DNA from: Patescibacteria group bacterium
GTDB lineage: Bacteria > Patescibacteriota > Microgenomatia > UBA1406
Length of the DNA: 64,000 bases
Direction: 5' to 3'
Assembly (NCBI GenBank): GCA_041665145.1
Contig: JBAYJK010000004.1
Coordinates: 66,434 to 130,433, forward strand
Position 1 is the stretch's first letter, and every line of letters starts with the position of its first letter. A program made the translations under genes and the position numbers. Below are positions 1,785-64,000 of this stretch, one piece after another. The notes beneath the pieces are model-generated. The model saw only the letters and a program-made list of their open reading frames with translations, was not told where the DNA came from and did no database searches.

Positions 1785-2115
1785 CTACTTGTGGTGTTCG
1801 TTCATTTTCTTCCAGTTCCACGTCCGGGTCTTGTTAAATTCAATTTTTTTTGAGTATCGCCACTTCAATATCAATTCCCAGCACCCCGCATAAATGAAGA
1901 ATGCGTTGCACCGCATCGCCCAATTCCTCCTTGAATCCGTCTTTCCCGTCAATATTTTCATGTCGATATGCCTCATAAGCTTCAGAGATCTCCGAATGGA
2001 TTAGCGCTATTTTCTCCGGTACCGATATTTCATCGGGAAGAGTACCAAAACCTTTTTCTTTTGCCTGGTCCATAATGAGATCTGTTAATTGTGTAACCGT
2101 TAATGATTTTTTCAT
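1785..2115 (-). pseudogene. MazG-like nucleotide pyrophosphohydrolase, reading frame broken in an A8 run
   Basis: Paralog of 10117..10443 ('EISEAYEAYR', 'EELGDAVQRILHLCG'). The frame stops at 1840 after '..AILKKN'. Removing one base of the T8 run (1844-1851) restores '..AILKKIEFNKTRTWNWKKMNEHHK', which matches the paralog C-terminus. The start at 2115 is supported by TATACT + 6 nt. Confidence 0.65.
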
Positions 2116-2178
2116 ACTCATAGTATACCGCGGATCTACTTGACTTTTTTGCTTTACTATATTAAACTTACATATAGT

Positions 2179-2547
2179 ATGAGAAAAAACTGTTCGAAGG
2201 TTGTTTTGGAGAAGTTTTTTGAGCCCTGTGTTTTGTATCTGTTGTTCAAACAAAAAACATATGGTTACGAGCTGCAAAAACAACTAGAGGAACATTGTTG
2301 TTGTTCGGTAAATATTGGAAATTTATACAGAAGCCTGGGAAAATTGGAAAAAAGCGGTGACATATCAAAAAGTAAAGAAGCAGGAGTAGGTGGACCGGAA
2401 CGGATTACGTACTCTTTAACCGAGAAGGGGAAAGAACTGCTTTCCGAATGGATAACCGAACTTGAAGAACAGAATAAAAATATTGCAAAACTTATTACAA
2501 ATTACAAAAAATTAACACATGTTACATCTCGATCAAGCAAGCTTTAA
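2179..2547 (+). CDS. PadR-family transcriptional regulator
   Basis: Winged-helix signature 'YGYELQKQLEE...GNLYRSLGKLEKSGDI...YSLTEKGKELL'. The ORF-track start at 2140 is a TTG inside a TTGACT -35-like hexamer, so ATG 2179 is preferred. Confidence 0.8.
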   Translation: MRKNCSKVVLEKFFEPCVLYLLFKQKTYGYELQKQLEEHCCCSVNIGNLYRSLGKLEKSGDISKSKEAGVGGPERITYSLTEKGKELLSEWITELEEQNKNIAKLITNYKKLTHVTSRSSKL

Positions 2548-2839
2548 AAAAGAGGTTGCCGAATTTAAGGGAGTCGTCTTAGTAGATTTCTTCGCTCATT
2601 GGTGTCCTCCTTGTAAAATGTTGTCGCCTCTTCTTGAAGAAATGGATAAAGAGAACAAAAGCAGTGACGTAAAATTTGCCAAGGTGGACGTCGATGTCAA
2701 TCAAGAACTTTCCGGACAGTATGGGGTTCAAAGCATCCCGACAGTTATTATCTTCAAAGACGGAAAGCAAGTTGCCCAGAAAGTCGGATTTGGTCCAAAA
2801 GAAATGTATCTCGAGGCTATAAATAGCGTGAGAAAATAA
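2519..2839 (+). CDS. trxA: thioredoxin
   Basis: 'WCPPCK' active site and 'GVQSIPTVIIFKDG'. 106 aa. Overlaps the PadR gene by 29 nt. Confidence 0.9.
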   Translation: MLHLDQASFKKEVAEFKGVVLVDFFAHWCPPCKMLSPLLEEMDKENKSSDVKFAKVDVDVNQELSGQYGVQSIPTVIIFKDGKQVAQKVGFGPKEMYLEAINSVRK

Positions 2840-2844
2840 GTAGG

Positions 2845-5800
2845 TCAGCGATAGGTTATTACGAGCTGGGGCGCTTGACTGACGTTTCCATTATACGTCC
2901 TAAAGACACGTCTGCCGGTTGCAAGACCAACGTTGGATGCGATGATTGACAAACTGTTCCCGCTATTCCAATCGCTTCTGTTTATGATTTCCTGAACAAT
3001 CGGCGCAAGGTTGGGAAGTGAGTACCATTGAGCACTCGTCCATGGCGCAGCAATGCTTGCATAGTACGTTGCAAGTGTGGAAGTTCGCGTAGCCGGTTTA
3101 TTTGTAGAGGAAAACGCCGCGCTATTTCCGGAAGCATCAGCGTATAGCGTGACAGTTGTGGCTGCGGTTTGGTTTGCGGTTGAGTACACCCTGAGGTACG
3201 CATCAACTATGGTTGCATTCCTGGGAATGGCAAGCCCGGTGAAACGGAATCCGGTATAGCTATTTGTTTCCGTAGTCGACCTTCCTAAATATGTGGTTGT
3301 TGCTGTCAAATTTAGTGTATTCACTACCTGCCGAGCATCATCATTACCCACGGCTATCGACTTGATCATTATCACACTACTATCTTCTTTTACTTCAACA
3401 TCATCTATGTACCAACCTGAGCCTGAAGTTCCATCATCAGACACCATTCTGAACCTGATGACCGCAGTATTACCAATATAAGGAGCAAGGTTGACAACAA
3501 CCTGTGACATTGTTCCCAACGTACCTCCGGTCCATGCACTCCTCAGATTAATCGCGCTTAATGTAGCATTATTTATTATTCCGTTATAAGCGCCTGAGGT
3601 AATTTGCGGACCTAAATCCACAAAGTTACTACCTCCGTCAATTGATATCTCAATAACCGCTCCATCTGCAGAAACTTCCGTCTGATATGTGTGCCTGAAA
3701 CTCAGTTTTCCATTTGCGGGAACAACAAATGGGCGCGTAGTAAGTCGGGAGTCTCTCGGAGTACTCACTTCAGCCGCAAAATAAGAATGCGTAGGACTAC
3801 TTGATCTTGATGTAGACAGAACCCAATCACTTGTTCCACCGGTAAATGATGAAGTCCATGTTTCGGAAACGGGATCAAAACTATCAGACAATACTGATCC
3901 TGCAGGAGGCGTCGGGGTGGGTGTTACTGTTGGAGTCATGGTTGGAGTAGGAGTAGCCGTAGGCGTGGGTGTTGTTGTTGGCGTAAGTGTGATTGTTGGT
4001 GTCGGAGTAGGTGTGCTTGTCTGTGTGGGTGTTGGAGTATTGGTTGGTGCTGATGTTACGGTAGGTGTGGGTGAGGCTGAAGGCGTTGGAGATGCCGAGG
4101 GAGTAGGTGTAATAGTTGGTGTGAGTGTAGGTGTGGGAGTAAACGCTGTTGTTGGCGTAAGTGTTATGGATGGTGTTGCCGAGGGTGTGGGAGTAACACT
4201 GTTCGATGGGGCCTGTAAAGTTGCCACTAAATCCTGTATGTAAAAATAATCTCCCCGCACAAAAGTGGGAGAGTCCAAATATTGGGCTAGTTCATCTTTG
4301 CTTGCATCCATAATCCAAGCTTTGGCAAGGAACATCGAATTTGTATCATAAAGCGGTGCGAGTATGGATTCACCGTATGAAGCTTCAAATCGGGAAGCCA
4401 TCCAGTAGGGAGCCGTATTATTGTACAGGTTGAACGCAGTGATTACATTCTGCGCACTTGCAGAATTTGTCTTCAAATATTGTGCTGTTTCCGGTGTCAG
4501 AAACATAAAGTTACGAGCAACAGCAAGTAATCTTCTCGAATCATGTGAATCCGGCCCCCAGGGAACATTTATTGTTTGCGCGAGATTCACTGCTCGACTC
4601 CGGGATCCGGTTGTAAGGTCGTTCAGGAGTGTCTGCTTCGCTGACGCCTCAGTTTGATTTCCGGCTAGCTTCGCAAGTTCTACATACCCCGTTAATCCGG
4701 CGATCCACGCGTTGTGTGCTTCTGGATATGTCAACAAAACACTATTTGTCGGAGGTGTCCCGAGACTAGATCTACACGCATTGAAAAGTGTCGTGGCATT
4801 CCCGCTGATTTGAGCATACTTCCAGAGTGCGTAAAACAAATGAGGAGGCCAACTCCAACCCGGATATCCATACATATCGGACTCGGAAGGTTGAAAATTG
4901 GGGATGACAGCAGTTACTTCCGGAGGCATTTCGACACCCGAATCCGTAACCCCGAGACTTTCTCGACTTGCCCCAACCCAACCGTTCGTGCGGTACGTAC
5001 AAGGAGAGTAATTCGACATTTCAGAAGACAAGTAGCTGAGAACTTGACTTTGTAAGTTTGAATTCAAATGCGGATACGCCAGTGTCAGTGTGTAGAGTGT
5101 ATCTATAGTACTATGAAAATAGTCCATAAAAACATCCCCGAAGTTGTAGAAAAAAGTTTCTGTGAAATAACCGTGTATGCCGTACCCCGGTCGCAAATGC
5201 CCCGCAGCAATAATTTTTTGCACTTCCGCTTCCAGTTTTTGTGTCAAGGTGTTTGAATCCGCAATCAAAGGGGTACCAGAAGCCTGACCAATAACCACAG
5301 GTGTCAATTCGTCTCTGGTTGGATTATTTGGTGCAAATGCAATTAGCGCGTTTCCTCTGTGCATATATAATCTTCCTTTGTAGGGAATCGGTGGATTAAC
5401 GTCTCCATGTGACCCGTAAATTCCATTTTGTCCTTCTGGTTGATTGTTCCACCCTGTGCCAGCTCTACTGTCCCCGTATACCATAACCGCATTTGACTCA
5501 TCCGTTCCGGTTGATTTCACATTATAATTTGGGGCGATTGATGCCAGGTTATATTCAAAGTACCACTGCTTATCGCTACCGTCCATTTTTGTCGAACCGG
5601 ACGCCCTATCACAGCAGAGATTCCAATATATTCTGTCTCCACCTGCAGAATAGGCCATCGGTTCATCGTTAGCCTGCATTGATGAGCCATATGGTGTAGT
5701 TATAAATGGGGTCCCATAATCCCAACCTACGATCTGCCCCCGAGTTGCATACTGTCCATTTACATAATATGTCTGAGCTTGATAAAGTTTTTGGTCAGCG

Positions 5801-6930
5801 CCGACAATTGCCGGATACCGCGTTCCCGATCGTGTACCCCACCAAAAGAATGGAGCATAATCCTTACGTCCATCTGAATCCAAATCAAAAGTTTTTTCAA
5901 TTCCGGTACTGGCATCCAAAATAAAATATGTCCTTCTCCATGCTTTGCGGAGGCCTGCAGTGTCGGTTGCAGTAGGGACCTCATAATATTCCGATGCGCT
6001 CGATATATTCATTTTTTCATTTATACGCGGCCCGATCTCCCCTTGAGACCCATATCTGGGTACCAAAAAATCATTGGTATCCAGATTCTGTAGACCCTCA
6101 GTATCATAAGGATCCGAGTATCGATAGTTGTCTGAGCCAACCAACAGTACAACATCACTGTTGCTTGCTGTGTCATGATATACGACAGGCCACCAGGAAT
6201 TAAAACCGGTCACGGGAAGTTTCTGATTACCTGCCGCAACAGGGTCGGTGTCAGATTTCCATAGAAGCGATCCTGTATTTAAGTCAAGCGCATAAACATA
6301 CGAGTCACTTGATGCAACATACACCTTGCCGTCTTTATATGCTGCTGAAAAATGCACCTGTCCGCCGGTCTGATACTTCCATGCAAGCGTCCCTTTTCTC
6401 AGCAAATCATCATTTGAATACACCGCATAAACCGCTCCATCCCTGTTTCCCATTATCACTAAACTGTTAATCACTAATGGGTTAGTATCATAACCTGCAC
6501 CAGCCTCATCAAAAGTCCATAGCTTAAGACCGGAATTGGCATCTATAGCATGTAGTTTGTGGTCAAATCCACCAACATAGGCAACCGAGTTGACAACAGT
6601 CGGAGAATTGCCGAGAGGGAGTTGAGTAGGATACGCCCACAATTGGGCACCATCTGTCGGGTTAAAAGCAAGCAAGCCTTTTGAGGTAGATAAAAATATC
6701 TTATTCTCAGCACCGATTATCTGCACTTTACCGGGTATAAAGTGATCTATTGGTCTATACCAATCAACACCAAGCGCACCGGACACCTCTTCAGCTACCC
6801 AAGAAGTGCGCTGGGGATTTGCGCCGGCCATATACCATTCGGAATCAGTCGCAGCTTTCGTCGTCCGGATATTACGCGCAAATAAGAGAACCCCGATTAC
6901 TATGAATGCGAACAAAAATTTAGTTCTCAT
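2845..6930 (-). CDS. giant secreted multidomain protein (PQQ-like beta-propeller repeats, helical middle region, T/P linker, beta-sandwich C-terminal domains)
   Basis: N-terminal signal/TM 'FLFAFIVIGVLLFA'. Repeated 'G..LW' / 'DG.VYA' PQQ-like blades. ~95-aa Thr/Pro linker. 'GSGWYIDDVEV'-type domain. The C-terminal ~190 aa resemble lectin-like or DNRLRE-like modules (weak call). Confidence 0.75.
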   Translation of the reverse strand: MRTKFLFAFIVIGVLLFARNIRTTKAATDSEWYMAGANPQRTSWVAEEVSGALGVDWYRPIDHFIPGKVQIIGAENKIFLSTSKGLLAFNPTDGAQLWAYPTQLPLGNSPTVVNSVAYVGGFDHKLHAIDANSGLKLWTFDEAGAGYDTNPLVINSLVIMGNRDGAVYAVYSNDDLLRKGTLAWKYQTGGQVHFSAAYKDGKVYVASSDSYVYALDLNTGSLLWKSDTDPVAAGNQKLPVTGFNSWWPVVYHDTASNSDVVLLVGSDNYRYSDPYDTEGLQNLDTNDFLVPRYGSQGEIGPRINEKMNISSASEYYEVPTATDTAGLRKAWRRTYFILDASTGIEKTFDLDSDGRKDYAPFFWWGTRSGTRYPAIVGADQKLYQAQTYYVNGQYATRGQIVGWDYGTPFITTPYGSSMQANDEPMAYSAGGDRIYWNLCCDRASGSTKMDGSDKQWYFEYNLASIAPNYNVKSTGTDESNAVMVYGDSRAGTGWNNQPEGQNGIYGSHGDVNPPIPYKGRLYMHRGNALIAFAPNNPTRDELTPVVIGQASGTPLIADSNTLTQKLEAEVQKIIAAGHLRPGYGIHGYFTETFFYNFGDVFMDYFHSTIDTLYTLTLAYPHLNSNLQSQVLSYLSSEMSNYSPCTYRTNGWVGASRESLGVTDSGVEMPPEVTAVIPNFQPSESDMYGYPGWSWPPHLFYALWKYAQISGNATTLFNACRSSLGTPPTNSVLLTYPEAHNAWIAGLTGYVELAKLAGNQTEASAKQTLLNDLTTGSRSRAVNLAQTINVPWGPDSHDSRRLLAVARNFMFLTPETAQYLKTNSASAQNVITAFNLYNNTAPYWMASRFEASYGESILAPLYDTNSMFLAKAWIMDASKDELAQYLDSPTFVRGDYFYIQDLVATLQAPSNSVTPTPSATPSITLTPTTAFTPTPTLTPTITPTPSASPTPSASPTPTVTSAPTNTPTPTQTSTPTPTPTITLTPTTTPTPTATPTPTMTPTVTPTPTPPAGSVLSDSFDPVSETWTSSFTGGTSDWVLSTSRSSSPTHSYFAAEVSTPRDSRLTTRPFVVPANGKLSFRHTYQTEVSADGAVIEISIDGGSNFVDLGPQITSGAYNGIINNATLSAINLRSAWTGGTLGTMSQVVVNLAPYIGNTAVIRFRMVSDDGTSGSGWYIDDVEVKEDSSVIMIKSIAVGNDDARQVVNTLNLTATTTYLGRSTTETNSYTGFRFTGLAIPRNATIVDAYLRVYSTANQTAATTVTLYADASGNSAAFSSTNKPATRTSTLATYYASIAAPWTSAQWYSLPNLAPIVQEIINRSDWNSGNSLSIIASNVGLATGRRVFRTYNGNVSQAPQLVITYR
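3905..4205 (-). repeat. low-complexity coding repeat for a Thr/Pro-rich linker
   Basis: Translates as TPTPSATPS...TPTPTPP. The top strand reads as GVGVGV. Confidence 0.85.
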
Positions 6931-7011: not shown

Positions 7012-7809
7012 CTATTCAATCGGAAGATATATCTCAAAGAATTGCTGGGAAGGGTTTACTGAAACTTTCCGATAAATCTCGAAATCAGGACATGTTGTTC
7101 GTGGCTTCAATTTGTTTAATCCGGCAAACTTCTCGAGCTCCTTCCAAAAATATGATAAAAGAGATCCGGATCCATTATGAGTGTAGGTGAGAACTTTCCC
7201 CGGTGCAAATTCGTAAAACTTTACTGTTCCCCGAAACTCCGGCATAATGCGCATACCATCTGTTGATAACGCCCCGATCCTGATGTGACTCCTCTTGGGT
7301 TTGTATCCTTGCTCTTCAAATATGGCAAGTGTGGTAAAGTCAGCACCTTGTTCTGCAAACATTCCCCTCAACTCATCACAATATTTTCCGATTGATGCAT
7401 ACGACCCAGTTCGCTCTATATAATAAACGCCGAAGGAAGGGAGTACTTTTAGTTGCGGATTCACCATCGTTCCGTTCGCTTCTAAGTTCTCCTGAAATTT
7501 AGTAAGGTTTCTCAGATTGAATCCGAGAGACTCAATTTCTTTCTCGATCAACCCTCTTTTTTCGCTGAACAACGCAAAAAGGTTACCGCGCTTCTTGAGA
7601 TATTCTTTCATTTCATTGAGAGAAACGCCAAGAGTAGATAAGAGCAAAATCAACTGATAGTCGATTATTTGATGCTCTTCATAGAGACGATACTTAGTTT
7701 TTGTTATCTTAACGGGCTTCAAAACTCCTTTTTCATCATAAAAATGTATTGTCCTTTTGGTTGTTCCGGCAAGCCGAGCAAGTTCTCCGGCAGTGATTAA
7801 GTTATTCAT
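7012..7809 (-). CDS. MerR-family transcriptional regulator with GyrI-like effector-binding domain (BmrR-like)
   Basis: N-terminal HTH 'AGELARLAGTTKRTIHFYDEKGVLKP', a coiled-coil linker, and a C-terminal GyrI-like domain ending '..FFEIYLPIE'. Confidence 0.85.
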   Translation of the reverse strand: MNNLITAGELARLAGTTKRTIHFYDEKGVLKPVKITKTKYRLYEEHQIIDYQLILLLSTLGVSLNEMKEYLKKRGNLFALFSEKRGLIEKEIESLGFNLRNLTKFQENLEANGTMVNPQLKVLPSFGVYYIERTGSYASIGKYCDELRGMFAEQGADFTTLAIFEEQGYKPKRSHIRIGALSTDGMRIMPEFRGTVKFYEFAPGKVLTYTHNGSGSLLSYFWKELEKFAGLNKLKPRTTCPDFEIYRKVSVNPSQQFFEIYLPIE

Positions 7810-7813
7810 AAAC

Positions 7814-7844
7814 TTGACTATAACGTAACGTTATACTTTATAAT
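7814..7844 (+). promoter_or_regulatory. MerR-type promoter of the UvrA-paralog gene
   Basis: -35 TTGACT (7814-7819). A 19-nt spacer contains the dyad ATAACGT-A-ACGTTAT (7820-7834). -10 TATAAT (7839-7844). Confidence 0.75.
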
Positions 7845-7872: not shown

Positions 7873-10113
7873 ATGAACAAAATAATAATAAAAGGAGCCA
7901 GAGAGAACAACCTGAAGAACATTAACCTTACTGTTCCGAGAAATAAGGTGGTGTGTTTTGTGGGAGTGTCCGGGTCCGGCAAGTCTACTATCGCTTTCGA
8001 TATAATTGCGCGTGAGGGTGAGCGGCAATATTTTGAGTCTTTGCCATCATATGCGCGTCGTTACCTTCACAAGAACAACAGACCGGATGTTGATGAAATC
8101 CGGGGCGTGTCTGCTTCAATCATAATCAGTCAAGATAGAGTTCGAGGTAATCCGCGTTCAACAGTTGGAACACTTACTGAAGCGTACACCTATCTTCGCA
8201 TGTTATATTCCCGTGTTGGTCTGCCATCAATGGATTCATCATACTATTCGTTTAACCATCCGTATGGGTATTGTAAAAAATGCAAAGGTTTGGGAAGAGC
8301 TGTAGAGGTTAATTTAGACAAAGTTGTAGACATGAATAAGAGTCTTAACGAAGGAGCCCTTTTGCCGGGAGATTGGTATATAGGAGGACGCCAATGGAGC
8401 ATTGTGAAGGCATCTCGTCATTTTAACATGGATAAAAAGCTGAGCGATTACTCGCCGAATGAACTTGATAATCTTTTATACGCACAGCCTGAACTCCTAG
8501 AGTCGGTAAGTGGAGAGTTTATCGATCGCTGGACATTCCAAGGTATCGTGCATCGCATCATTCATCGCAATAACAACACGCATCGCAACCTATCTGAAAA
8601 TGATATGAAGTATTTTAGTTTGGTTGATTGCCCAGAATGTCATGGCGGTCGTTTAAACAACACATCGTTGGAAGTGCGACTTAATGGTAGGAACATCGGT
8701 GAAGTGGGCAATATGCCCCTTCCTGAATGTTTGGCGTTCATACAAAGCATCGTTCATAAGAATGCCGATGCCATCAAACCCCGACTCGTCCAAGAGCTAC
8801 AAGGGTTGATCGCTGTGGGTGTCGGATACTTGTCCCTCAACCGATCAGCCGACACACTTTCGGGAGGTGAAGCGCAACGGGTTAAAATGGCCCGACAGCT
8901 CGGATGTGATCTTATCGAGACAGTATACGTTCTAGACGAGCCCACGGCCGGACTTCACCCGAGAGACGTGGTGAACGTTGTAGAGAACCTTAGAAAACTT
9001 AAAAATAATGGCAATAGCGTGATTGTTGTCGAGCATGATGAAACGGTTATCAGAAATGCCGATTTTGCAGTCGAAGTCGGACCGGGAGGTGGGAAAAAGG
9101 GTGGAGAGATCGTTGCAACAGGATCAATCGATCAAATTATGAATAACCCCACATCTCTTACCGGAAAGTACCTAAGTAAAGAAAAGAGCATTCCAGCAAA
9201 GCAAACCTACCGCCATCCCACCGGTTTTTTGACCATCACAAACGCTCGTCGCCACAACCTGAAGAGTCTCACCCTTACAGTTCCAACCGGGGTGCTTGTA
9301 GCACTGACCGGCGTGTCGGGATCGGGAAAAAGCTCGCTGGTCGAGGAGATTGTTGACCAACAGGAAAGCAACGTAATAGTTGTCGATCAAAAAGCCGTTG
9401 GAGCAAATAAGCGCGGGTGCATCGCAACATATCTAGGTGCGTTTGATACCATTCGTCAACACTTTGCAGATACGCACCACCTGCACCCCAGTTTCTTCAG
9501 TTATAACTCAAAAGGAGGTTGCGAACTATGCAAAGGAGTCGGGTTTGTTGAAATGGACATGAACTTTTTGGGAGATGTAAAAATTAAGTGCGAAAGTTGT
9601 AACGGTCGAAGATATAGAGAAGAAGTATTGGAATATTTGTATAACGGCAAAAATATCGCAGAAGTGCTTGCTATGACCGCAACGGAGATTAAAGAGTTTT
9701 TTAATGACCCAAATATTGCAACACAAATGAAGTTGCTTGAAGAGGTGGGTCTTGATTATATGGAAATGGGACAAACCCTCGACACGCTCTCAGGAGGAGA
9801 ATCCCAGCGACTGAAACTTGCGAGTCGTTTGCAAGCCAGAGGTGAATTTTATATTTTAGATGAGCCAACATCCGGCTTGCATTTTGCTGATGTAGAAAAA
9901 CTTTTGGTGCTTCTGAATAAACTAGTCGATAACGGTAACACGGTACTGGTGGTCGAGCATAATTTGGATGTTATTAAGAATGCCGATTGGATTATAGACC
10001 TCGGGCCGGAAGGCGGGGAAAAAGGAGGAGGAATAGTCGCCCAAGGAACACCGTGGGAGATCGCCCAGGTTTCCCGGTCGTACACCGGACATTATTTGCA
10101 AAGAGTCTTGTGA
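7873..10113 (+). CDS. UvrA-family ABC ATPase, short paralog lacking the UvrB-binding region (class II UvrA-like)
   Basis: Two Walker A motifs ('GVSGSGKST', 'GVSGSGKSS'). Two signature motifs ('LSGGEAQR', 'LSGGESQR'). Zn-finger CxxC pairs ('CKKCKG','CPECHG','CELCKG','CESCNG'). 746 aa. The gap from Walker A1 to signature 1 is about 150 aa shorter than I recall for canonical UvrA. Confidence 0.88.
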   Translation: MNKIIIKGARENNLKNINLTVPRNKVVCFVGVSGSGKSTIAFDIIAREGERQYFESLPSYARRYLHKNNRPDVDEIRGVSASIIISQDRVRGNPRSTVGTLTEAYTYLRMLYSRVGLPSMDSSYYSFNHPYGYCKKCKGLGRAVEVNLDKVVDMNKSLNEGALLPGDWYIGGRQWSIVKASRHFNMDKKLSDYSPNELDNLLYAQPELLESVSGEFIDRWTFQGIVHRIIHRNNNTHRNLSENDMKYFSLVDCPECHGGRLNNTSLEVRLNGRNIGEVGNMPLPECLAFIQSIVHKNADAIKPRLVQELQGLIAVGVGYLSLNRSADTLSGGEAQRVKMARQLGCDLIETVYVLDEPTAGLHPRDVVNVVENLRKLKNNGNSVIVVEHDETVIRNADFAVEVGPGGGKKGGEIVATGSIDQIMNNPTSLTGKYLSKEKSIPAKQTYRHPTGFLTITNARRHNLKSLTLTVPTGVLVALTGVSGSGKSSLVEEIVDQQESNVIVVDQKAVGANKRGCIATYLGAFDTIRQHFADTHHLHPSFFSYNSKGGCELCKGVGFVEMDMNFLGDVKIKCESCNGRRYREEVLEYLYNGKNIAEVLAMTATEIKEFFNDPNIATQMKLLEEVGLDYMEMGQTLDTLSGGESQRLKLASRLQARGEFYILDEPTSGLHFADVEKLLVLLNKLVDNGNTVLVVEHNLDVIKNADWIIDLGPEGGEKGGGIVAQGTPWEIAQVSRSYTGHYLQRVL

Positions 10114-10443: not shown

Positions 10444-10569
10444 AAAAAATTTGAAACTGCTAATTAAATTTCATCAGAACCTCATCCGAAACAATTGTCC
10501 TGTTTTTTAACTGCCGTTTGGTATCCATACTCCAATTGTACCAGAGTGGTCATATAGTATACTTTTCTC

Positions 10570-11205
10570 ATGCATCACGGATATCACATCGTTTTTATTC
10601 CCGGTCTGCATGACCAGCATCCGCTTCAAAAAGCACTATTATCCCTTCTGCCGTCAGTATGGAGATTGTTTGGGCTTCGTATGCATATTGTCTATCCCGA
10701 ATGGGAAAAGGGAAACAGTTTCACGCCAAAACTGGAACGGATACTTGCAAAAATCGACTCGTTGCTCGATGCGGGTTATTCTGTAGCAGTTGCCGGACAA
10801 AGTGCTGGCGGAAGTGCCGCGGGAAATGCTTTTATACAACGAAAAAACAAACTTGCAGGATTCGTAAATATTACAGGAAGACTGAAAGAGGGAAACAATG
10901 TTACACCAACTCTTGCAAAGGTCTCAAAAAACAGTCCTGCGTTTGCCGAATCGGTTCGTCAATTTGAAAGAGATGAAAAGAAATTGTCCAAGACTGACAG
11001 AAAGAGAATGCTGACTATTCGTCCTTTACGCGATTATGTCGTGCCCGCGGCAACTGCCGCAGTTGCCGGGGGAACAAATCTTATCAGTCCATTTCCCGGA
11101 CATGCGACGGGAGGAATTTATATCAATATCTTTTATGCGAGAAGAATTCGCGAGTTCCTGGAGAATTGCAGAGAAACATACGAGATAAAACACAAATTGA
11201 CCTAG
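10570..11205 (+). CDS. alpha/beta-hydrolase-fold protein
   Basis: Nucleophile elbow 'GQSAGG'. TATACT (10558-10563) + 6 nt + ATG. Confidence 0.6.
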   Translation: MHHGYHIVFIPGLHDQHPLQKALLSLLPSVWRLFGLRMHIVYPEWEKGNSFTPKLERILAKIDSLLDAGYSVAVAGQSAGGSAAGNAFIQRKNKLAGFVNITGRLKEGNNVTPTLAKVSKNSPAFAESVRQFERDEKKLSKTDRKRMLTIRPLRDYVVPAATAAVAGGTNLISPFPGHATGGIYINIFYARRIREFLENCRETYEIKHKLT

Positions 11206-11235
11206 TTACAACAGATTAAGAGATATAATAAAGAT

Positions 11236-11652
11236 ATGATCACGCTATCCACAGCCAAAAAATCAGAATCACTTGAAGAGGAGTGGAAACTATTTAGTAA
11301 AGGGAAGTACGGGCCCACAGCTCATTGGCTGGAAAAACATTTTCGCTTCAAGGCAGTTGAGGATGGAGAACTTGTTGGTACTATTGAGGGAAAAATTGAG
11401 GGGGATGTTGTGTATATTGCAGCCCTCATGGTCAAACCAACCGTACGGGGAAAAGGTGTTGGCCAGATGCTTGTTAATCGGGCAGAATTATTCGGTAAAA
11501 AGCACAAAGCAACAAAAACATGGTTGCTTACCGGTGCTAACTGGGAATCAAACGGCTTTTACCAAAAGATGGGTTTTACAAAATCTGCAACTATTCCTAA
11601 ATTGTTTTTCAATGTCGACTTCAACGCGTACATCAGAATAATAAAGCAATGA
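11236..11652 (+). CDS. GNAT-family N-acetyltransferase
   Basis: Motif A 'VRGKGVGQMLV' and 'GFYQKMGF'. TATAAT (11224-11229) + 6 nt + ATG. Confidence 0.8.
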   Translation: MITLSTAKKSESLEEEWKLFSKGKYGPTAHWLEKHFRFKAVEDGELVGTIEGKIEGDVVYIAALMVKPTVRGKGVGQMLVNRAELFGKKHKATKTWLLTGANWESNGFYQKMGFTKSATIPKLFFNVDFNAYIRIIKQ

Positions 11653-11701
11653 TGTCTATAAACCGTGGACAAATATTTAACTACTTGGTAGTATCTTTTC
11701 A

Positions 11702-11941
11702 ATGTTAACCAAAAAAGACTTACAGCAAATCGCACGTCTCTTTGACGGGCAGTTTGAGCGTATAGACAGCCGATTCGTTCATATAGAGAAAACGCTCGAT
11801 AGACATAGTAAAGAGCTACGTACATTAAGACAAGACCAGAAGATTATGCTCAATCTTCTTGACCGTGAACAAATGTTTCAGCGCAGGCGCCTTGATAGAG
11901 TAGAAACTCACCTACAATTGCCCTCTCTCACGCAAGACTGA
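11702..11941 (+). CDS. hypothetical coiled-coil protein
   Basis: 79-aa ORF, charged and heptad-like. Extended -10 TGgTAGTAT (11686-11694) lies 7 nt upstream of the ATG. Confidence 0.45.
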   Translation: MLTKKDLQQIARLFDGQFERIDSRFVHIEKTLDRHSKELRTLRQDQKIMLNLLDREQMFQRRRLDRVETHLQLPSLTQD

Positions 11942-12725: not shown

Positions 12726-13130
12726 TTAGTTTTTCAACCTCTTATCCGGCACGAGGTATTTGGGGTCAATGGGATTGGGCTCGTCGTCATTATAGTTTAG
12801 GAACAGCTCTTCTCCGGAACGGACATCTTGTATCGTAGTAAATACCACTTCCTTTTTTCCATAATCAAAGTCTATCTCTACGTTACGGTTGTAGCTATGA
12901 TTGAGGACAGCGCCATACCCTAAAACCAGTGAGTCATGTTCGTCATCCCAATCGAAGATATACCTGCTGAATATAGTCTTCTCAACGTGTTCATCATCTC
13001 TTTTATACACAACAGCCGGACACCGTTCGATAACCGTTCCTTTTTTAATGTCTTCCGTCGCAATCAGTCCACGGATATGTAGTGTCGGGGAAATCCCCAC
13101 TCTGAAAGGCAGTTTGATTCCTTCTCCCAT
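12726..13130 (-). CDS. SET-domain protein (putative lysine methyltransferase)
   Basis: 'LNHSYNRN' (NHS motif) and 'GEELFLNYN' (ELxxxY motif) in a 134-aa protein. TAATAT lies 7 nt upstream of the ATG. Confidence 0.7.
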   Translation of the reverse strand: MGEGIKLPFRVGISPTLHIRGLIATEDIKKGTVIERCPAVVYKRDDEHVEKTIFSRYIFDWDDEHDSLVLGYGAVLNHSYNRNVEIDFDYGKKEVVFTTIQDVRSGEELFLNYNDDEPNPIDPKYLVPDKRLKN

Positions 13131-13193
13131 ATGGTCAATATTATCAAATTAATAGTAGAATAGAGAACGAGACATATTAATCCAATTAAACTT

Positions 13194-18803: not shown

Positions 18804-18832
18804 TTGCCAAACCTATAGTATAGGAGTATACT
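18804..18832 (+). promoter_or_regulatory. sigma-70-type promoter, leaderless geometry
   Basis: -35 TTGCCA (18804-18809), 17-nt spacer, -10 TATACT (18827-18832), then 6 nt to ATG 18839. Confidence 0.65.
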
Positions 18833-18838
18833 ATAGAG

Positions 18839-21623: not shown

Positions 21624-21663
21624 CTACAGGTTACCATAAAAATTACTTGTTACAATCTGTACT

Positions 21664-44310: not shown

Positions 44311-44316
44311 GGTCAC

Positions 44317-46304: not shown

Positions 46305-46321
46305 TATTGTATAATCCTTCC

Positions 46322-54022: not shown

Positions 54023-54059
54023 AGAAACCAGTATAGAAACCGGTCATGGAAATAGCAAA

Positions 54060-55595: not shown

Positions 55596-56189
55596 TCAAA
55601 TAAAGGTTGGGGTACTCCGTTCTTTGACGAATCCGATACGTTTGTTTTTCGCAGTCATCATAATAAAATAGTTCAATGCTTTTCGATACATACCGACACC
55701 ATGCCGTTTTCTGCTTTCAATGTAGGCGATCCGAATACGTTTATACGACATGGGCAGCTTCTGAAAATTCTTCCAGGCATCGGGATTTGCTTTTAATGCT
55801 TTCAGAATTCCTTCCGAAATAACAAACGGTTCCTGAACAATTTTCTCGGGATCGTATACATGAGCAAGTGCTTTCAAACCGGCATCAGTCATGAGATGTT
55901 GTTCCATAAGCTCCCGTATTCTCTCTTTGTTCATCTGGGATAGCACACTGGTCGGTTTACGTGGCGAAAACCGTTGGGCAAATTTGGTGTCGTCAATTTT
56001 TTTACATATGCTGTCAATCCATCCGAAACAGAGAGCTTCCAAGACTGAATCGTCATACGATATCCGCGGTTTCCCGGAATCTTTACGATAGTAAATAAGC
56101 CAAATCTCCGATTCCGTGTCGTGGTGTTTCGCAAGCCAGTCATGCCAATCTTTCCGGGTAGTTATGTAGAGCGTTTTGCCAAGCAACAT
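55596..56189 (-). CDS. YdeI/OmpD-associated family protein
   Basis: 'ISYDDSVLEALCFGWIDS'. TACAAT (56201..56196) + 6 nt + ATG. Confidence 0.7.
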   Translation of the reverse strand: MLLGKTLYITTRKDWHDWLAKHHDTESEIWLIYYRKDSGKPRISYDDSVLEALCFGWIDSICKKIDDTKFAQRFSPRKPTSVLSQMNKERIRELMEQHLMTDAGLKALAHVYDPEKIVQEPFVISEGILKALKANPDAWKNFQKLPMSYKRIRIAYIESRKRHGVGMYRKALNYFIMMTAKNKRIGFVKERSTPTFI

Positions 56190-56216
56190 AGAATAATTGT
56201 ATCATCTGTCACTCTA

Positions 56217-56669
56217 TTATGAGGTGTGAAGTAGCCATAGATGCGTCAGGTATATTGTTGTTACAATTGAGACTACGGTAAGACACTGCCAATAGGTTTG
56301 GTATACAAAAAAAATGGCATTACTCTTAAGTAAGCCGTATCCCATCACTTTTTCGCAATACTTGTTGTCTTTCACAAATTGCTGGTTCATCCAATAAATC
56401 GTCTCGCCGAGACTGCGCACAATCCAAAATACTGAAACAATGAGCAGAAACAGTAGCCAATCATTAATATATAGCGAGATGAGGGAAGCAAGAAACCAGA
56501 AAAATCCGATGGTAAGCGCATCTCCCCACACAAATATTCCCATCCAAGACAATAATAATGTTTCTTTATAGGGATTCCTCTTTTTAATGGATTGATAAAT
56601 TCCTAAAACAAAAACCATTAACGATAAAACACTATACAAACCAACTACAATAGTCTGCCATAACTCCAT
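56217..56669 (-). CDS. membrane protein, unknown function
   Basis: About 5 TM helices. Start reassigned from 56729 to ATG 56669 (TATAAT 56681..56676 + 6 nt). Confidence 0.55.
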   Translation of the reverse strand: MELWQTIVVGLYSVLSLMVFVLGIYQSIKKRNPYKETLLLSWMGIFVWGDALTIGFFWFLASLISLYINDWLLFLLIVSVFWIVRSLGETIYWMNQQFVKDNKYCEKVMGYGLLKSNAIFFVYQTYWQCLTVVSIVTTIYLTHLWLLHTS

Positions 56670-56751
56670 ATTTTCATTATACAACGGATATTGGCCTAAA
56701 ATGTGCGCGCGTCGCTTGCATTTCTCCAAAATAGGCGACTATACTGGGCGT

Positions 56752-57138
56752 ATGTCGGTACAAGAAAAGGTTAAAAATATGCTTACATGGGGATTTGTAC
56801 TTTGGGTAACCGGGTACATCGCGGGATTTGTTCTGTTTTTTGTCGTTCCAAAAGACTATATTGGGTGGGTTATTACTCCCTTCGCAATATTATTCACTGT
56901 GTGGGTATTGTTTAAAAAAGTAAAACGGCCGGAACTTATGTGTTATTTTGGTACCGGATTAATTTGGACGCTTATGGCAATGATCCTGGACTATATCTTC
57001 ATTGTTATGCTTTTGAAGACCGGGACTTCGTATTACAAACCGGATGTGTTCCTGTATTACGGGCTCACGTTCCTGCTTCCGATACTCGTCGGGTACTGGA
57101 AATTCAAACATAAACTGCCAAAAGCTAAATTGTTCTAA
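56752..57138 (+). CDS. membrane protein, unknown function
   Basis: 4 TM helices. Start reassigned from 56701 to ATG 56752 (TATACT 56740-56745 + 6 nt). Confidence 0.55.
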   Translation: MSVQEKVKNMLTWGFVLWVTGYIAGFVLFFVVPKDYIGWVITPFAILFTVWVLFKKVKRPELMCYFGTGLIWTLMAMILDYIFIVMLLKTGTSYYKPDVFLYYGLTFLLPILVGYWKFKHKLPKAKLF

Positions 57139-57167: not shown

Positions 57168-57584
57168 CTACAAAACTAGGCCGGGTGATTTCTCAGCTAA
57201 TTTGATAATTATTTTTAAAGTATCCAAATTCAAATCTTCGAGTTTTTTGAAACGGATGCAACTTTTACCTACACTAACTTTCCCTAAATCATTCTTATAT
57301 TGTTCGGCAATATAGCCACCGGTATCAACTGCGCAAAGATACAGGCTTATATAATCTTTTTGACTTGCTATCGCGATGGTTGGCCAATCAAGCATTTCTT
57401 TTTTGTAGTTTTTATACTTAAAACTACCATAGCCGGGCATATTATAGAGAAAGTTCGGTTTAAGACTGGGGGCATTGGTCTTTATAAATTTATCCAAAAA
57501 TTCCAGTATCTTTCTCCGTTCTTCGGGAAGAGCATCAAAATATTCCTGACTCGACTTTGCTTTGACAGGTTTAAACATATTCAT
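57168..57584 (-). CDS. DUF1801 (YdhG-like) protein
   Basis: 138 aa. 'YISLYLCAV...GKSCIRFKKLEDLNLD'. Extended -10 TGaTATAAT (57596..57591) + 6 nt + ATG. Confidence 0.6.
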   Translation of the reverse strand: MNMFKPVKAKSSQEYFDALPEERRKILEFLDKFIKTNAPSLKPNFLYNMPGYGSFKYKNYKKEMLDWPTIAIASQKDYISLYLCAVDTGGYIAEQYKNDLGKVSVGKSCIRFKKLEDLNLDTLKIIIKLAEKSPGLVL

Positions 57585-57619
57585 AATCTGATTATATCAA
57601 GAGGCGCTTGCTGGTATTT

Positions 57620-58186
57620 TTATTCACCTAGTAGTTTCATTACTTGCTTGACTCGGGTTTCCGGTGTTCCGGAAACAACAAAGAAGTTTTTGGTACATGA
57701 GGACCCGAATTCACCGTAGTGTTTCTCTACTGCGTTGCGAAAGTTGTGATTAATAGGTCGGAAACCGTCATCTTCCAATTCCAAAACATTAGGGCAATAG
57801 ATAATGAAGTCATACGCTTTGGCTTCTTTTTTATTCAGTTCTTTCCAATAAGAGAGAGTCTTTTTGTCGTAACTATGGTTAAGATCTGGCCGCAGCTGTG
57901 AGTAACAGGCGAGGTGTGTAAATTGACTGAAAGCTGAATCTACGATGATTATTTCCGTGGATGCTTTCTCCACTTTTTCTTTTTGGTATTCATAGAATAT
58001 TTCCTGCAGTTGGAGAAATTCCGCAGGATCAAGGTGCCCTGTAGATTCTTTTTTCAGTTTCTTTCTCGTGATATCCCGGACATTCTCATCGATCTCCCAT
58101 GCCTTTTTGCCCATAAGTTTGCAAAGATCACGTGTCAGCGTGGTTTTGCCGGTACTGAATGTGCCGATTATTGCTACCTTTTTCAT
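57620..58186 (-). CDS. P-loop ATPase/kinase (AAA_28, NadR-kinase-like)
   Basis: Walker A 'GTFSTGKTT', 'IIVDS', 'LEDDGFR'. Extended -10 TGaTATAAT lies 7 nt upstream of the ATG. Confidence 0.55.
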   Translation of the reverse strand: MKKVAIIGTFSTGKTTLTRDLCKLMGKKAWEIDENVRDITRKKLKKESTGHLDPAEFLQLQEIFYEYQKEKVEKASTEIIIVDSAFSQFTHLACYSQLRPDLNHSYDKKTLSYWKELNKKEAKAYDFIIYCPNVLELEDDGFRPINHNFRNAVEKHYGEFGSSCTKNFFVVSGTPETRVKQVMKLLGE

Positions 58187-58261
58187 GTTCTAAATTATAT
58201 CAAAGAGTTTGAACATCCAGGACAGGGTATGAGAAAATTGAGACTAGAGTGATGAAGTTGC

Positions 58262-59341
58262 TCAGTTGGCTAGTTTTCTCTTTTTAAGTTTAACCACGCC
58301 AATCACCAAAATAAGTAAAACCACGCTTCCCCCGATGAAGTAAAACATTTTGTAATTTAGATTATTGTCTCTGGACGATTTTTGCCCAGTCGGAACACCG
58401 ATTGTTTGCCAACTTTTTTCTTCTACTGAAGTATCGAATGTCGTTTTTTCCGATAAACCGTTAACGGTGGCTGTCACTGACTCTCCTGACGCGACATCAA
58501 CACCGGTACCTGTAGCAAGACTTTCAAAATTAACCACACCCTCAATCACTTTAATCGTCGACTCCGATCCTGTCTCGGTCATGACAAACACTGTGCCTTT
58601 GATTCCGGCGACAGCCTGACTCATATGGCCTTCCATAGTCCCGTCTTTTATCATCTTTTTAACATTAACCCAAATATTCCCCGTTATAAGTTTCCACTTG
58701 GAATCTTTTTCAGGGGGAGTGTCTATGACTATTTCAGATTCCGCTTTCAGCTCAAATGTAGTCATATCGGAAAGTGAAATAACCGCTTTGCTGTCTTCCC
58801 CGGTTTTGATATGACAATCCACATAAATTACTCTACCCATCTTCATCACGTCCCAAGCTTCCAAGTCAGGAGGACAGGCAATTTCTACTTGGCCGCTTAA
58901 ATCGCTGACTCGAGCCCCACTGTCACGAGTCTCTGCATTTTCAGTCCATGCGTCAAAAATGGAAGGATCGGTAACGGTGAGCTCCATTGTTATTCCTTGC
59001 GTAGAAAACGTAAAGATTTTACCATCAGTCAGTTGGAACGTCAGCTTACTTCCCGAATCAGATGCAAATACAGCCTCTCCATGAGGTCCTCCCGTAAATG
59101 TTCCTTTCAGAAATAGTCCTTCACAATGTTCTCCGCCGGCTGTATCCACTGTAGTCATATCGCATACGGTGGTCAGCTCGGCATCTCCTCCAGTGTTTAC
59201 AAAATAAAGCGTACCTGTTCCACTAAACGAACCCTGGAAGGTAAATGTTCCCGTTGCTTCACCTTTGATCGACTCAAAAGCATACGCAGGAGAGGCAAAA
59301 ACGAAGAAGAACAGGAGCAATAGAAACGTTATCTTGCTCAT
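58262..59341 (-). CDS. secreted FecR-domain-like protein with C-terminal TM anchor
   Basis: Signal peptide. 'AVAGIKGTVFVM...IKVIEGVVNF'. C-terminal TM 'FYFIGGSVVLLILVIGVV' followed by KLKKRK. Confidence 0.55.
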   Translation of the reverse strand: MSKITFLLLLFFFVFASPAYAFESIKGEATGTFTFQGSFSGTGTLYFVNTGGDAELTTVCDMTTVDTAGGEHCEGLFLKGTFTGGPHGEAVFASDSGSKLTFQLTDGKIFTFSTQGITMELTVTDPSIFDAWTENAETRDSGARVSDLSGQVEIACPPDLEAWDVMKMGRVIYVDCHIKTGEDSKAVISLSDMTTFELKAESEIVIDTPPEKDSKWKLITGNIWVNVKKMIKDGTMEGHMSQAVAGIKGTVFVMTETGSESTIKVIEGVVNFESLATGTGVDVASGESVTATVNGLSEKTTFDTSVEEKSWQTIGVPTGQKSSRDNNLNYKMFYFIGGSVVLLILVIGVVKLKKRKLAN

Positions 59342-60440: not shown

Positions 60441-60767
60441 TCATTTTTTTACTTGTCCGTATTTATCAACACAATAACCTAACGCCGAACCTAAAATTAA
60501 AGTCATGATACTAATAGGAATCAGAGCCAGCGGTTCTTTCCAACCAATAAGTATTGCTGTAGGAAGTAACATAAGGAACGAAACTATTATTCCTTTTACA
60601 ATACCTGTAACTTTAAGACTAGTGTGAGCAATAAAAAAACCTGAGACAACCCAGAGAGAGAAAGCTGACAAATTAGCATCCCACGTTAGGTTTTGAAGCA
60701 TCATCGGGATTACGTCAATTATCCCTGCAAGGACTCCAAGCATAATCCCGAGTTTAGTTTTCGTCAT
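60441..60767 (-). CDS. small membrane protein
   Basis: 4 TM helices. TAAAAT (60779..60774) + 6 nt + ATG. Confidence 0.55.
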   Translation of the reverse strand: MTKTKLGIMLGVLAGIIDVIPMMLQNLTWDANLSAFSLWVVSGFFIAHTSLKVTGIVKGIIVSFLMLLPTAILIGWKEPLALIPISIMTLILGSALGYCVDKYGQVKK

Positions 60768-60816
60768 GGGAAGATTTTAAGCTATTTCTGAAGAAATTCA
60801 TAGAAATCCGTAGAAA

Positions 60817-62588: not shown

Positions 62589-62589
62589 T

Positions 62590-62829
62590 TTAATTTTCTC
62601 TGTCCTTCGGCGGATTGGGATCGCGCCTATTTATGGTATCTTTGCTACGGATTTGGCCATGTTGATCTTGGGTAACCAATTCTCCACCACTGTTGTTTTT
62701 CATAATATTTCGAGCAAAATCTTCAGCTTGCCGCTGAGTATCAAAAACACCCGCTGCTTTTGAAGCTCCTTCTCTCTTTGCTTTCCAGTCATTTCCCGTT
62801 GGGGAAACCCAGTAATTATTTTTTACCAT
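62590..62829 (-). CDS. DUF2188-like small protein
   Basis: 79 aa. 'WKAKREGASKAAGVFDTQRQAEDFARNIMKNNSGGELVTQDQHGQIRSKDT'. Confidence 0.6.
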   Translation of the reverse strand: MVKNNYWVSPTGNDWKAKREGASKAAGVFDTQRQAEDFARNIMKNNSGGELVTQDQHGQIRSKDTINRRDPNPPKDREN

Positions 62830-63889
62830 CAGAACTCACCTCCTTCTTTTGTTTCATCAAATTTGTAATTTTGTCTTCCCATTCTTCTGAATGGATAATT
62901 CTGTCTTTTTGCAACTTTTCGTTTAATATCTCAGCTTTAGTCCTTTTTGATAATTCTTCCCATTTTTCCCCAAAAACATATGTAGCATTACCGTAATAGA
63001 TACTTTCTAAAACAAAAAGACCTCTATTGGAAAATCCATGGATTATATACCCATGAAAACCACCTCTACCAATGGCACGAAAGTCTGGTTCATAGCCATT
63101 AATTGTTTCCAGGCGATATTCCAAAACAGGCCGATTTCCTTTTGGGGCCAGTTTGATCAATGGATCAAGATGTTTTTTAAATTGTTGCCAGGGCATTTCT
63201 CCTCTGGGAAGAATCTCCCAGTTCAACCGAACTACCGTTGTTTTAATAATTGAGTCGAATGTGTTGGTAAAAAATTGACATTCCCCGAAAAGCTCAAGAA
63301 ACAAATTAATCGTATGTTTTATTAAATTCTCATTTTCCGTGGTTTTTTGGTACGGCAATGAAACTAAAAGTAAATTACCGTCTTGATCCTCCGAAAAATT
63401 AAGCTCAATTCCCGGGGGAGGGTCGAACGAACGTGGATATCTTGGATATGGAATATCTACAATTTTTGATCTCTCAACCGTTTCGTAGCGGCCGGCCCAT
63501 TCTTTCCAATGCCATATGGCTTGGCGGTAGACAGTTTCCATCGGCTTATCTCGATGGACAATCTCTTTACCCTCAGCGTTATATGAACTTACAGGTCCGC
63601 TTCCTTTCGGTAACAAAGAATCACCTTTCTTAAAGGGACTCGGAAATCCGACGCTTTCAAGAATCAAAGCAAATCTTTCCGGCGAACTTATGCCGATAAT
63701 AAATTTGGAGCCTTCGGCTATGTGGCTGATATAGGGATATATGTTTCGAATACGTTTTTTTTGTATGATCATTTTCTTGTTTATATTTGTAACGGCCTCT
63801 TTCCGACAAAAAGAGAAATTGGTCGACGGCTGAATTGTATGAAATCTCTCATGAAAAGTCAAGTGGTCAAATTGTAATTTGATATACAC
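62816..63889 (-). CDS. hypothetical protein, no recognisable domain
   Basis: Long ORF. The start is uncertain (GTG 63889 or ATG 63772, giving 318 aa). The 3' end overlaps the next gene by 14 nt. Confidence 0.55.
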   Translation of the reverse strand: MYIKLQFDHLTFHERFHTIQPSTNFSFCRKEAVTNINKKMIIQKKRIRNIYPYISHIAEGSKFIIGISSPERFALILESVGFPSPFKKGDSLLPKGSGPVSSYNAEGKEIVHRDKPMETVYRQAIWHWKEWAGRYETVERSKIVDIPYPRYPRSFDPPPGIELNFSEDQDGNLLLVSLPYQKTTENENLIKHTINLFLELFGECQFFTNTFDSIIKTTVVRLNWEILPRGEMPWQQFKKHLDPLIKLAPKGNRPVLEYRLETINGYEPDFRAIGRGGFHGYIIHGFSNRGLFVLESIYYGNATYVFGEKWEELSKRTKAEILNEKLQKDRIIHSEEWEDKITNLMKQKKEVSSDGKK

Positions 63890-63921
63890 TTTGACATATA
63901 AAAATTGTGATATAATAACAA

Positions 63922-64000
63922 CATGTTACATAAAAACCAAGTAAAGATTTTGGAGCTTGCTAAAAGCATAAATCTTGCCGAACTTACTTTACAGGAAATT
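63922..64000 (+). CDS. partial gene (5' end only), possibly an HTH regulator
   Basis: 'MLHKNQVKILELAKSINLAELTLQEI'. Extended -10 TGaTATAAT (63907-63915) + 6 nt + ATG. Truncated by the window edge. Confidence 0.4.

Follow-up and report, generated by a model that had tools for sequence, protein, structure and literature searches.

A 64,000-nt stretch of DNA from a Patescibacteria group bacterium (contig JBAYJK010000004.1, positions 66,434 to 130,433; termed here the window) displays a hexamer of the form TAnnnT at a fixed distance from the start codons of many of its genes. In 23 of 74 genes (31%), hexamer and start codon are separated by exactly 6 nt; this nucleotide count is termed the gap, and a gap of 6 places the hexamer at positions -12 to -7. 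As judged from the sequence, these sites are with high probability sigma-70-type promoters fused to start codons, and the mRNAs made from them are probably leaderless. RNA polymerase would bind the TATAAT-like -10 element at -12 to -7 of the ATG, usually without a recognisable -35 element. The DNA would be opened and RNA synthesis would begin on the seventh base past the hexamer, which is the A of the start codon, aided by the Y-A-T context. The resulting mRNA would have the 5' end 5'-pppAUG, with neither a 5' untranslated region (UTR) nor a Shine-Dalgarno (SD) sequence, and the ribosome with initiator tRNA would have to engage this terminal AUG directly.

The window has a G+C content of 41.9% and is ~95% coding, and its 74 non-overlapping long open reading frames (ORFs) constitute the gene set. 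An Rfam scan of the window detected one tRNA-Gln, no rRNA and no further match. The stretch is assigned to a genome of the Candidate Phyla Radiation (CPR)/Patescibacteria of the Microgenomates kind. The closest relatives of its prolyl-tRNA synthetase (ProRS), beyond a 100% match, are metagenome proteins and proteins of Candidatus Roizmanbacteria.

The enrichment of the 6-nt gap was assessed with starts chosen blind to the motif, i.e., the first ATG of each of 74 greedily selected ORFs, which avoided the start choices of the original prediction. With these starts TAnnnT is found at gap 6 in 18 of 74 genes, while 2.1 would be expected on the basis of the same upstream regions (binomial P = 2.5e-12); longest-ORF starts give 15 (P = 3.6e-9). 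A similar peak appears when genes are ignored altogether. TAnnnT lies at gap 6 before 60 of the 2,139 ATGs on both strands, where ~38 is typical and every other gap from 0 to 40 has 26-47, and GTG and TTG triplets in the window display no gap peak. Of hexamers that match TATAAT in at least five of six positions, there are 13 at gap 6, whereas every other gap has 0-4. The original prediction took the fixed-offset TAnnnT to be a genuine architecture and not a product of chance, and the motif-blind and all-ATG peaks bear this out. The counts given from here on adopt the starts of public gene callers wherever such exist. With these starts, the 23 gap-6 genes are joined by 11 more with a box at gap 5, 7 or 8, and seven sites are at gap 7. 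Boxes at gaps 9-12 also exist (e.g., at 1739, 17955, 34882 and 23302). A peak of 10 sites at gap 9 was considered as a second class and rejected, as it is an echo of a TAG or TAT just before the hexamer (TAGTATAAT).

Twenty-one gap-6 sites had been claimed, and all 21 carry the quoted hexamer followed by exactly 6 nt and ATG (GTG at 23832). At one of them the hexamer and gap are right but the position is off by one: the start codon begins at 63923 instead of 63922. The ORF that begins there stays open for 26 codons to the window end, falls outside the 74 genes and represents a 24th gap-6 site. Hexamer and spacing are likewise as claimed at the five gap-7 sites (11702, 13130, 21664, 54022 and 58186) and at 27416, also gap 7. 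Absent from the earlier list are the gap-6 sites at 34975 (TACGTT), 47740 (TACGAT) and 51645 (TAATAT) and a gap-7 site at 7809 (TATAGT). The start codons of the 23 gap-6 genes are 22 ATG and one GTG.

The hexamer is found preferentially at the beginning of transcription units, which were delimited solely by gene spacing and orientation. A gene was termed unit-first if divergent from its upstream neighbour or at least 20 nt behind it, and internal if it followed a gene on the same strand by less than 20 nt. Among unit-first genes, 20 of 49 have the hexamer at gap 6 and 11 more at gap 5, 7 or 8, i.e., 31 of 49 (63%). Internal genes have it at gap 6 in three of 23 cases and in none at gap 5, 7 or 8 (Fisher P = 9.4e-5 for gaps 5-8). 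GeneMarkS-2 separates a promoter from a non-SD ribosome-binding site by just such a unit-first bias (PMC6028130), and by this criterion the hexamer is promoter-like. Intrinsic-terminator-like hairpins, scanned over positions 1-60000, are uninformative for unit boundaries (15 versus 18.3 and 16 versus 18.6 in shuffled sequence), with a modest rise in the 20-40 kb segment (28 versus 18.1 +/- 4.7). Transcription units here seem to be set mainly by -10 boxes alone.

The frequency matrix from 22 sites reads T(22) A(22) t(16) a(18) a/c(13/6) T(22) over positions -12 to -7, and the logo is that of the sigma-70 -10 consensus (TATAAT/TATACT). Positions -24 to -45 are uninformative, the content at -24 to -32 being at most 0.12 bit. 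A weak T-15/A-14/G-13 signal is present in the gap-6 matrix; it does not correspond to a classical TGn extended -10, and an explanation by upstream stop codons fits 28895 only.

The base immediately before the start codon was not a selection criterion. A pyrimidine (C or T) occupies position -1 in 22 of the 23 gap-6 sites (binomial P = 2.9e-6), compared with 20 of 38 control TAnnnT-N6-ATG sequences located away from gene starts; at the gap-7 sites a pyrimidine is present in six of seven, as counted by eye. A pyrimidine followed by ATG forms a Y-1 R+1 Y+2 start element whose centre lies 7 bp past the -10 box. For 49 bacteria, a 2025 survey of mapped transcription start sites (TSSs) found a modal distance of 7 bp downstream of the -10 element and a conserved Y-1 R+1 Y+2 start element (PMC12641261). 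A YRY centred 7 bp after the -10 element sets the TSS in 93.1% of E. coli promoter variants, and in 79.0% when at 8 bp (PMC12641261). Gap 6 places the A of the ATG at the seventh base past the hexamer, and gap 7 at the eighth.

A -35 element is rarely found. Good -35 sequences at 17 nt had been noted in four genes; this stands for TTGACA at 32096 and 44317 and for TTGCCA at 18839, but 27416 has TTGCTG (4/6). Matches of at least 5/6 to TTGACA at this distance are thus present at three of 23 sites, compared with 2.3% of control TAnnnT sites (P = 0.014). Scans of positions 1-60000 for two-hexamer promoters showed no excess over shuffled sequence (45 versus 42.5, 36 versus 41.4 and 54 versus 42.5), and the -35 element was for this reason dropped as a criterion for sites. 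The sites are predicted to be essentially -10-only promoters, a type that reportedly occurs in mycobacteria.

SD sequences are scarce in the window. SD-like cores (GGAGG, AGGAG, down to the 4-base GGAG, GAGG and AGGA; region -20 to -4) precede five of the 74 genes, which is below the 9.9% rate at random positions. GGAGG itself occurs 82 times, once at 3-12 nt ahead of a gene start. An SD-like core is found at one of the 23 gap-6 sites, where it overlaps the promoter of 18839. One convincing SD site had been reported. This AAGGAG is real and stands 9 nt ahead of ATG 22302, the NCBI start of a hypothetical gene (22287-22304, plus strand), but it is not the only one: a perfect SD, AAGGAGGTGA, is followed by 6 nt and the ATG of a DUF2188 gene (62829; 62827-62845, minus strand). 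These two, the sole convincing SD sites before the 74 genes, are counter-examples to the leaderless geometry. Upstream of the other 40 genes the sequence is A-rich (~45-50% A at -5 to -2), G-poor and without the hexamer. The same SD scan yields 35% in Saccharibacteria loci, 25% in one ProRS-gene (proS) relative, the locus labelled L086, and 25% in non-CPR loci. In the relatives L087-L090, rpsU, the bS21 gene, retains a strong SD (GGGAGGAGG, AAGGAGGTG). The perfect SD at 62829 and the rpsU sites together suggest that the anti-SD is probably intact but little used in this genome. Initiation appears to be largely SD-independent, downstream and leadered genes included. A study of CPR ribosomes found the anti-SD to be lost only in a Parcubacteria subgroup, and bS1 to be shortened (PMC9297842).

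The start codons were compared with public annotation. The original prediction had moved seven starts (2115, 22775, 28895, 43725, 46322, 56669 and 56752), and each of these is also the start in the NCBI annotation, the ENA annotation or both. Gene calls of the ENA assembly of the same genome (L081, whose coordinates are the window coordinates minus 36,321) use 39515, 43725, 43746, 44317, 46322, 56189 and 56669, plus 47740. By exact-sequence look-up, NCBI starts are at 2115 (91 aa), 22775 (181 aa), 28895 (293 aa), 56752 (128 aa) and 22302 (124 aa). ENA/Logan callers place two of these at 22691 and 56701 instead and give a shorter 285-aa product for the 28895 gene. The agreement with NCBI is not fully independent, as GeneMarkS-2 models promoter boxes near starts (PMC6028130). 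All 419 aa of ProRS (46322-47581) match, at 100% identity, a protein in the NCBI and JGI annotation of a Patescibacteria group bacterium genome. Alignments to family profiles begin within the first residues of the products starting at 35345 (enolase), 46322 (ProRS), 21664 (GIY-YIG), 58186 (AAA_28), 59494 (Metallophos), 7809 (MerR) and 1739 (RRM). Gene callers that expect an SD mis-set starts in CPR metagenome-assembled genomes, and Prodigal-type and NCBI calls differ at 22691/22775, 28895 and 56701/56752.

Two genes were followed in orthologues. In proS, TATAAT-N6-ATG is shared by L083 (88% protein identity), L084 (85%), L087 (Roizmanbacteria CP065004, 59%) and L089, and L088 and L090 have TATAAT-N7-ATG. 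The spacers vary in sequence (CCTTCC, CAATCC, CTTCCC, AACTGC), and the sequence further upstream is unalignable. The second gene, 44317-44895, encodes a lexA-like S24 peptidase and is preceded by TTGACA-17-TATAGT-N6-ATG (44282-44319, plus strand). The 29-bp promoter block TTGACAAGTGAACAATTGTTCACTATAGT (44282-44310) is identical in L084, while the spacer differs at four of its six positions. GAACAATTGTTC (44291-44302), a Cheo-type SOS box of the form GAAC-N4-GTTC, is located between the -35 and -10 elements, and the next gene (45040-46272) encodes a Y-family (IMS/DinB) polymerase. This arrangement suggests that the CPR genome has an autoregulated SOS module. The position of the SOS box between the two promoter elements of a lexA-like gene gives independent support for a working, regulated promoter at 44317.

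The same geometry is found in other CPR genomes. Twenty loci from other genomes were compared (Roizman-, Pacei-, Parcu-, Nomura-, Berkel- and Saccharibacteria, and the proS relatives L085-L090), and the control loci from outside the source genome came in part from an enolase search (~54% identity matches, all phyla) and were reused for a comparison of CPR with non-CPR. Both sets are small samples, with taxon labels as deposited. With motif-blind starts, 26 of 215 genes (12%) in CPR loci have the hexamer at gap 6 compared with 3.5% in their own background (P = 3.9e-8), and gaps 7 and 8 are raised too. In 66 non-CPR loci there is no peak by the same statistic (11 of 429, 2.6%, versus 1.7% background; P = 0.13), and the two gap-6 rates differ at Fisher P = 2.7e-6. 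SD-like motifs are at background level in the CPR loci other than Saccharibacteria, which have more SD and no gap-6 peak. Full-text literature searches found no description of leaderless genes in Patescibacteria/CPR, including Saccharibacteria, Parcubacteria, Microgenomates and Roizmanbacteria, the matches being unrelated or confined to reference lists; a TM7x transcriptome preprint is without TSS or UTR information. CPR ribosomes are reduced, with a short bS1, and bS21 and other proteins are often lost. It is about an even chance that leaderless and SD-independent initiation is the default across much of the CPR (Microgenomates and Parcubacteria, less so Saccharibacteria), perhaps tied to these reduced ribosomes.

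Several explanations other than leaderless promoters can be considered. That an AT-rich genome, combined with a choice of starts lying behind TAnnnT, produced the pattern is a practically negligible possibility. It is true that the window is 58% A+T, that TAnnnT occurs at 1.8% of all positions and that seven starts had been moved to fit the motif. Nevertheless, the peak persists with motif-blind starts and over all ATGs, the moved starts are those of NCBI or ENA, the pyrimidine bias at -1 was unselected, and the non-CPR loci display no peak under the same analysis. It is also very unlikely that TAnnnT is a non-SD translation signal, such as an A/U-rich ribosome-binding site or enhancer in leadered mRNAs, as in the Bacteroidetes of group B in the GeneMarkS-2 scheme. 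With SD sequences nearly absent some other initiation signal is needed, and all upstream regions are A/T-rich and G-poor. The motif is, however, the sigma-70 -10 consensus with T1, A2 and T6 invariant, it is largely confined to unit-first genes, it is accompanied by a -35 element at 17 nt at some sites and by an operator at one, and the other 40 genes do without it.

Real promoters whose transcripts are not strictly leaderless represent an unlikely but more serious alternative. Leaders of 1-5 nt might be present, or the boxes might be secondary promoters, with the main transcripts leadered, SD-independent and initiated upstream. In line with this, boxes are also found at gaps 7-12, the 7809 gene has a second and stronger promoter 30 nt upstream, three gap-6 sites closely follow an upstream same-strand gene or lie within it, and the non-leaderless genes of this genome start without SD anyway. 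Arguing the other way are the sharp, single-position peak at gap 6, the Y-1/A+1/T+2 element that coincides with the start codon at 22 of the 23 sites and that, as a YRY, fixes the TSS in 93% of E. coli variants (PMC12641261), and the retention in orthologues of spacer length but not spacer sequence. Some observations do weigh against leaderless promoters at every site. Most sites lack a -35 element, which leaves the -10 box as the sole basis for calling them promoters, and some hexamers are weak (TACGTT, TACGAT, TAAAAT, TATCAT). The sites at 28895, 35345 and 51645 lie less than 20 nt behind or inside a same-strand gene, where read-through is possible. A leader of 1-3 nt may be present, or extra upstream promoters may give leadered transcripts, as with the TTGACA-17-TATTAT 30 nt upstream of 7809. 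The geometry is not invariant either, as proS in L085 and L086 has TATAAT/TATAGT ~29-45 nt upstream. These two regions (L085 9224-9311, L086 9931-10018) represent either a leaderless-to-leadered switch within the lineage or mis-annotated proS starts.

Leaderless promoters of this type have counterparts in known systems; the architecture itself is well known, and the Patescibacteria are a new lineage for it. In group C of GeneMarkS-2, leaderless first-in-operon genes have a Pribnow box at 6-8 nt from their start, and the predicted leaderless share of operons is 25-50% (PMC6028130). This group comprises 90% of Actinobacteria and 97% of Deinococcus-Thermus, with ~40% of operons in M. tuberculosis (PMC6028130). 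As in the Actinobacteria (M. tuberculosis, M. smegmatis, Streptomyces, Corynebacterium), TANNNT stands 6-8 nt before first-in-operon starts, the -35 element is poor or absent, and ATG or GTG is at the 5' end, which is a prediction here. Unlike group C, whose remaining genes use SD, only two of ~50 do so in the window. The present case also differs from Actinobacteria in its CPR lineage, its 42% GC, and a very compact genome, in which -10 boxes share bases with upstream stop codons and with one another. In Deinococcus deserti 167 of 262 mapped transcripts are leaderless (cited in PMC6028130). The Deinococcus-Thermus pattern, with the -10 element directly upstream and a leaderless majority, is comparable with the ~63% of unit-first genes here. 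The Deinococcus case differs in that it was established by differential RNA sequencing and proteogenomics, with SD used for leadered genes, whereas the present one is predicted from sequence.

Haloarchaea such as Haloferax have many leaderless genes and little SD for the rest, the same combination as here. In archaeal group D, however, a TATA box is located ~26 nt upstream and is used through TBP/TFB, and in the window positions -24 to -32 are without signal. An archaeal-type assignment does not fit, as the hexamer at -12 to -7 is of bacterial -10 type and the proteins are bacterial (Patescibacteria). The near absence of SD and the A-rich, G-poor sequence before non-leaderless starts are reminiscent of group B Bacteroidetes. 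There, however, the motif precedes all genes, including internal ones, in leadered mRNAs, whereas the hexamer here is unit-first-specific and promoter-like.

If leaderless transcription is confirmed, a large, deep-branching radiation with pared-down ribosomes would join the short list of leaderless-rich groups (Actinobacteria, Deinococcus-Thermus). The apparent near-total SD independence bears on whether leaderless initiation is ancestral or a companion of genome streamlining. With the -10 rule, starts can be predicted to the exact base and promoters mapped in organisms for which experimental genetics hardly exists; the rule also offers a hint for the design of expression constructs in the few cultivable Patescibacteria. 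As the mechanism is textbook and the NCBI pipeline already sets these starts right, the result is an extension rather than a surprise.

The gap-6 sites on the plus strand extend from 10558 to 63925. A hypothetical gene (10570-11205) is preceded by TATACT-N6-ATG (10558-10572) in a divergent 126-nt intergenic region, and a GNAT acetyltransferase gene by TATAAT-N6-ATG (11224-11238). The gene at 18839-19942 has TTGCCA-17-TATACT-N6-ATG (18804-18841) and is the sole gap-6 site with G at -1. TATAAT-N6-GTG (23820-23834) is found before a GH18 glycosyl hydrolase gene. An alpha/beta hydrolase gene has TATACT-N6-ATG (28883-28897), with the start moved from 28889 to 28895 in agreement with the NCBI product; its box is directly abutted by an upstream TAG stop codon at 28880-28882. 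TTGACA-17-TACTAT-N6-ATG (32061-32098) precedes a SIMPL/DUF541 gene. A putative carbonic anhydrase gene has the weak box TACGTT-N6-ATG (34963-34977). It is followed by the enolase gene, with TATAGT-N6-ATG at 35333-35347, the third residue of which aligns to profile position 1; the enolase box (35333-35338) contains the TAG stop of the gene at 34975-35337. ProRS has TATAAT-N6-ATG (46310-46324), its start moved from TTG 46307 to 46322, and a DUF2207 gene has TACGAT-N6-ATG (47728-47742) at the start used by the public caller. Two further sites are TATACT-N6-ATG (56740-56754), before the hypothetical gene called at 56752 by NCBI and at 56701 by ENA/Logan, and TATAAT-N6-ATG (63911-63925), before the partial ORF that begins with ATG 63923.

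Two ECF-type sigma-70 genes are present within the 64 kb (22775-23320 and 31155-31667, both plus strand), and both display the leaderless geometry. The first has TACAAT-N6-ATG (22763-22777), with its start moved from 22691 to 22775 to give the 181-aa NCBI product; the second has TATAAT-N6-ATG (31143-31157). A FecR-domain protein (58262-59341, minus strand) is a possible anti-sigma factor or sensor. For a small genome, this is a notable number of alternative sigma systems in one 64-kb stretch.

On the minus strand, TATACT-N6-ATG (2113-2127) precedes a MazG-like NTP pyrophosphatase gene, whose start corrected to 2115 gives the 91-aa NCBI product, and TATCAT-N6-ATG (39513-39527) precedes a YkuD-domain gene. 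A Ham1-like gene has TAATAT-N6-ATG (51643-51657), with an additional TATAAT at gap 8, and its promoter is within the upstream gene. TACAAT-N6-ATG (56187-56201) is found before a DUF8412/OmdA gene and TATAAT-N6-ATG (56667-56681) before a hypothetical gene with the start corrected to 56669 (150-aa call). A DUF1801 gene has TATAAT-N6-ATG (57582-57596) and a hypothetical 108-aa gene TAAAAT-N6-ATG (60765-60779).

One divergent pair is particularly compact. TATAAT-N6-ATG (43723-43737, minus strand) precedes a GT2 glycosyltransferase operon with the start corrected to 43725 (284-aa call), and TATACT-N6-ATG (43734-43748, plus strand) precedes a NUDIX gene with its start at 43746. The start codons are 20 nt apart, and the -10 hexamers (43732-43737 and 43734-43739) overlap on opposite strands. 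Because of this overlap, RNA polymerase should be able to occupy just one of the two promoters at a time.

The gap-7 sites on the plus strand are TAGTAT-N7-ATG (11689-11704), TACAAT-N7-ATG of the GIY-YIG gene (21651-21666), where residue 1 aligns to profile position 1, and TACACT-N7-ATG of a DUF5652 gene (27403-27418). Those on the minus strand are TATAGT-N7-ATG of the MerR regulator (7807-7822), the gene with the second promoter upstream, TAATAT-N7-ATG of a SET-domain gene located at 12726-13130 (13128-13143), TATACT-N7-GTG of a YfhO-family membrane protein (54020-54035) and TATAAT-N7-ATG of the AAA_28 gene (58184-58199), where residue 3 aligns to profile position 1. A small RNA-binding protein with an RRM domain (1476-1739, minus strand) has TATAAT at gap 11 and possibly a leader of 4-5 nt.

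Two further proteins are unusual in their domain make-up. The UvrA homologue at 7873-10113 (plus strand) comprises just 746 aa, and the NCBIfam UvrA profile (943 positions) aligns from ~264 at residue 119. The UvrB-binding region of canonical UvrA may be missing from this putative product, which would make it UvrA2-like. A 1,361-aa protein (2845-6930, minus strand) displays a PQQ/BamB-like beta-propeller at its N-terminus, and its C-terminal part resembles sortase-dependent M36 metallopeptidases; all matches are far below family cut-offs.

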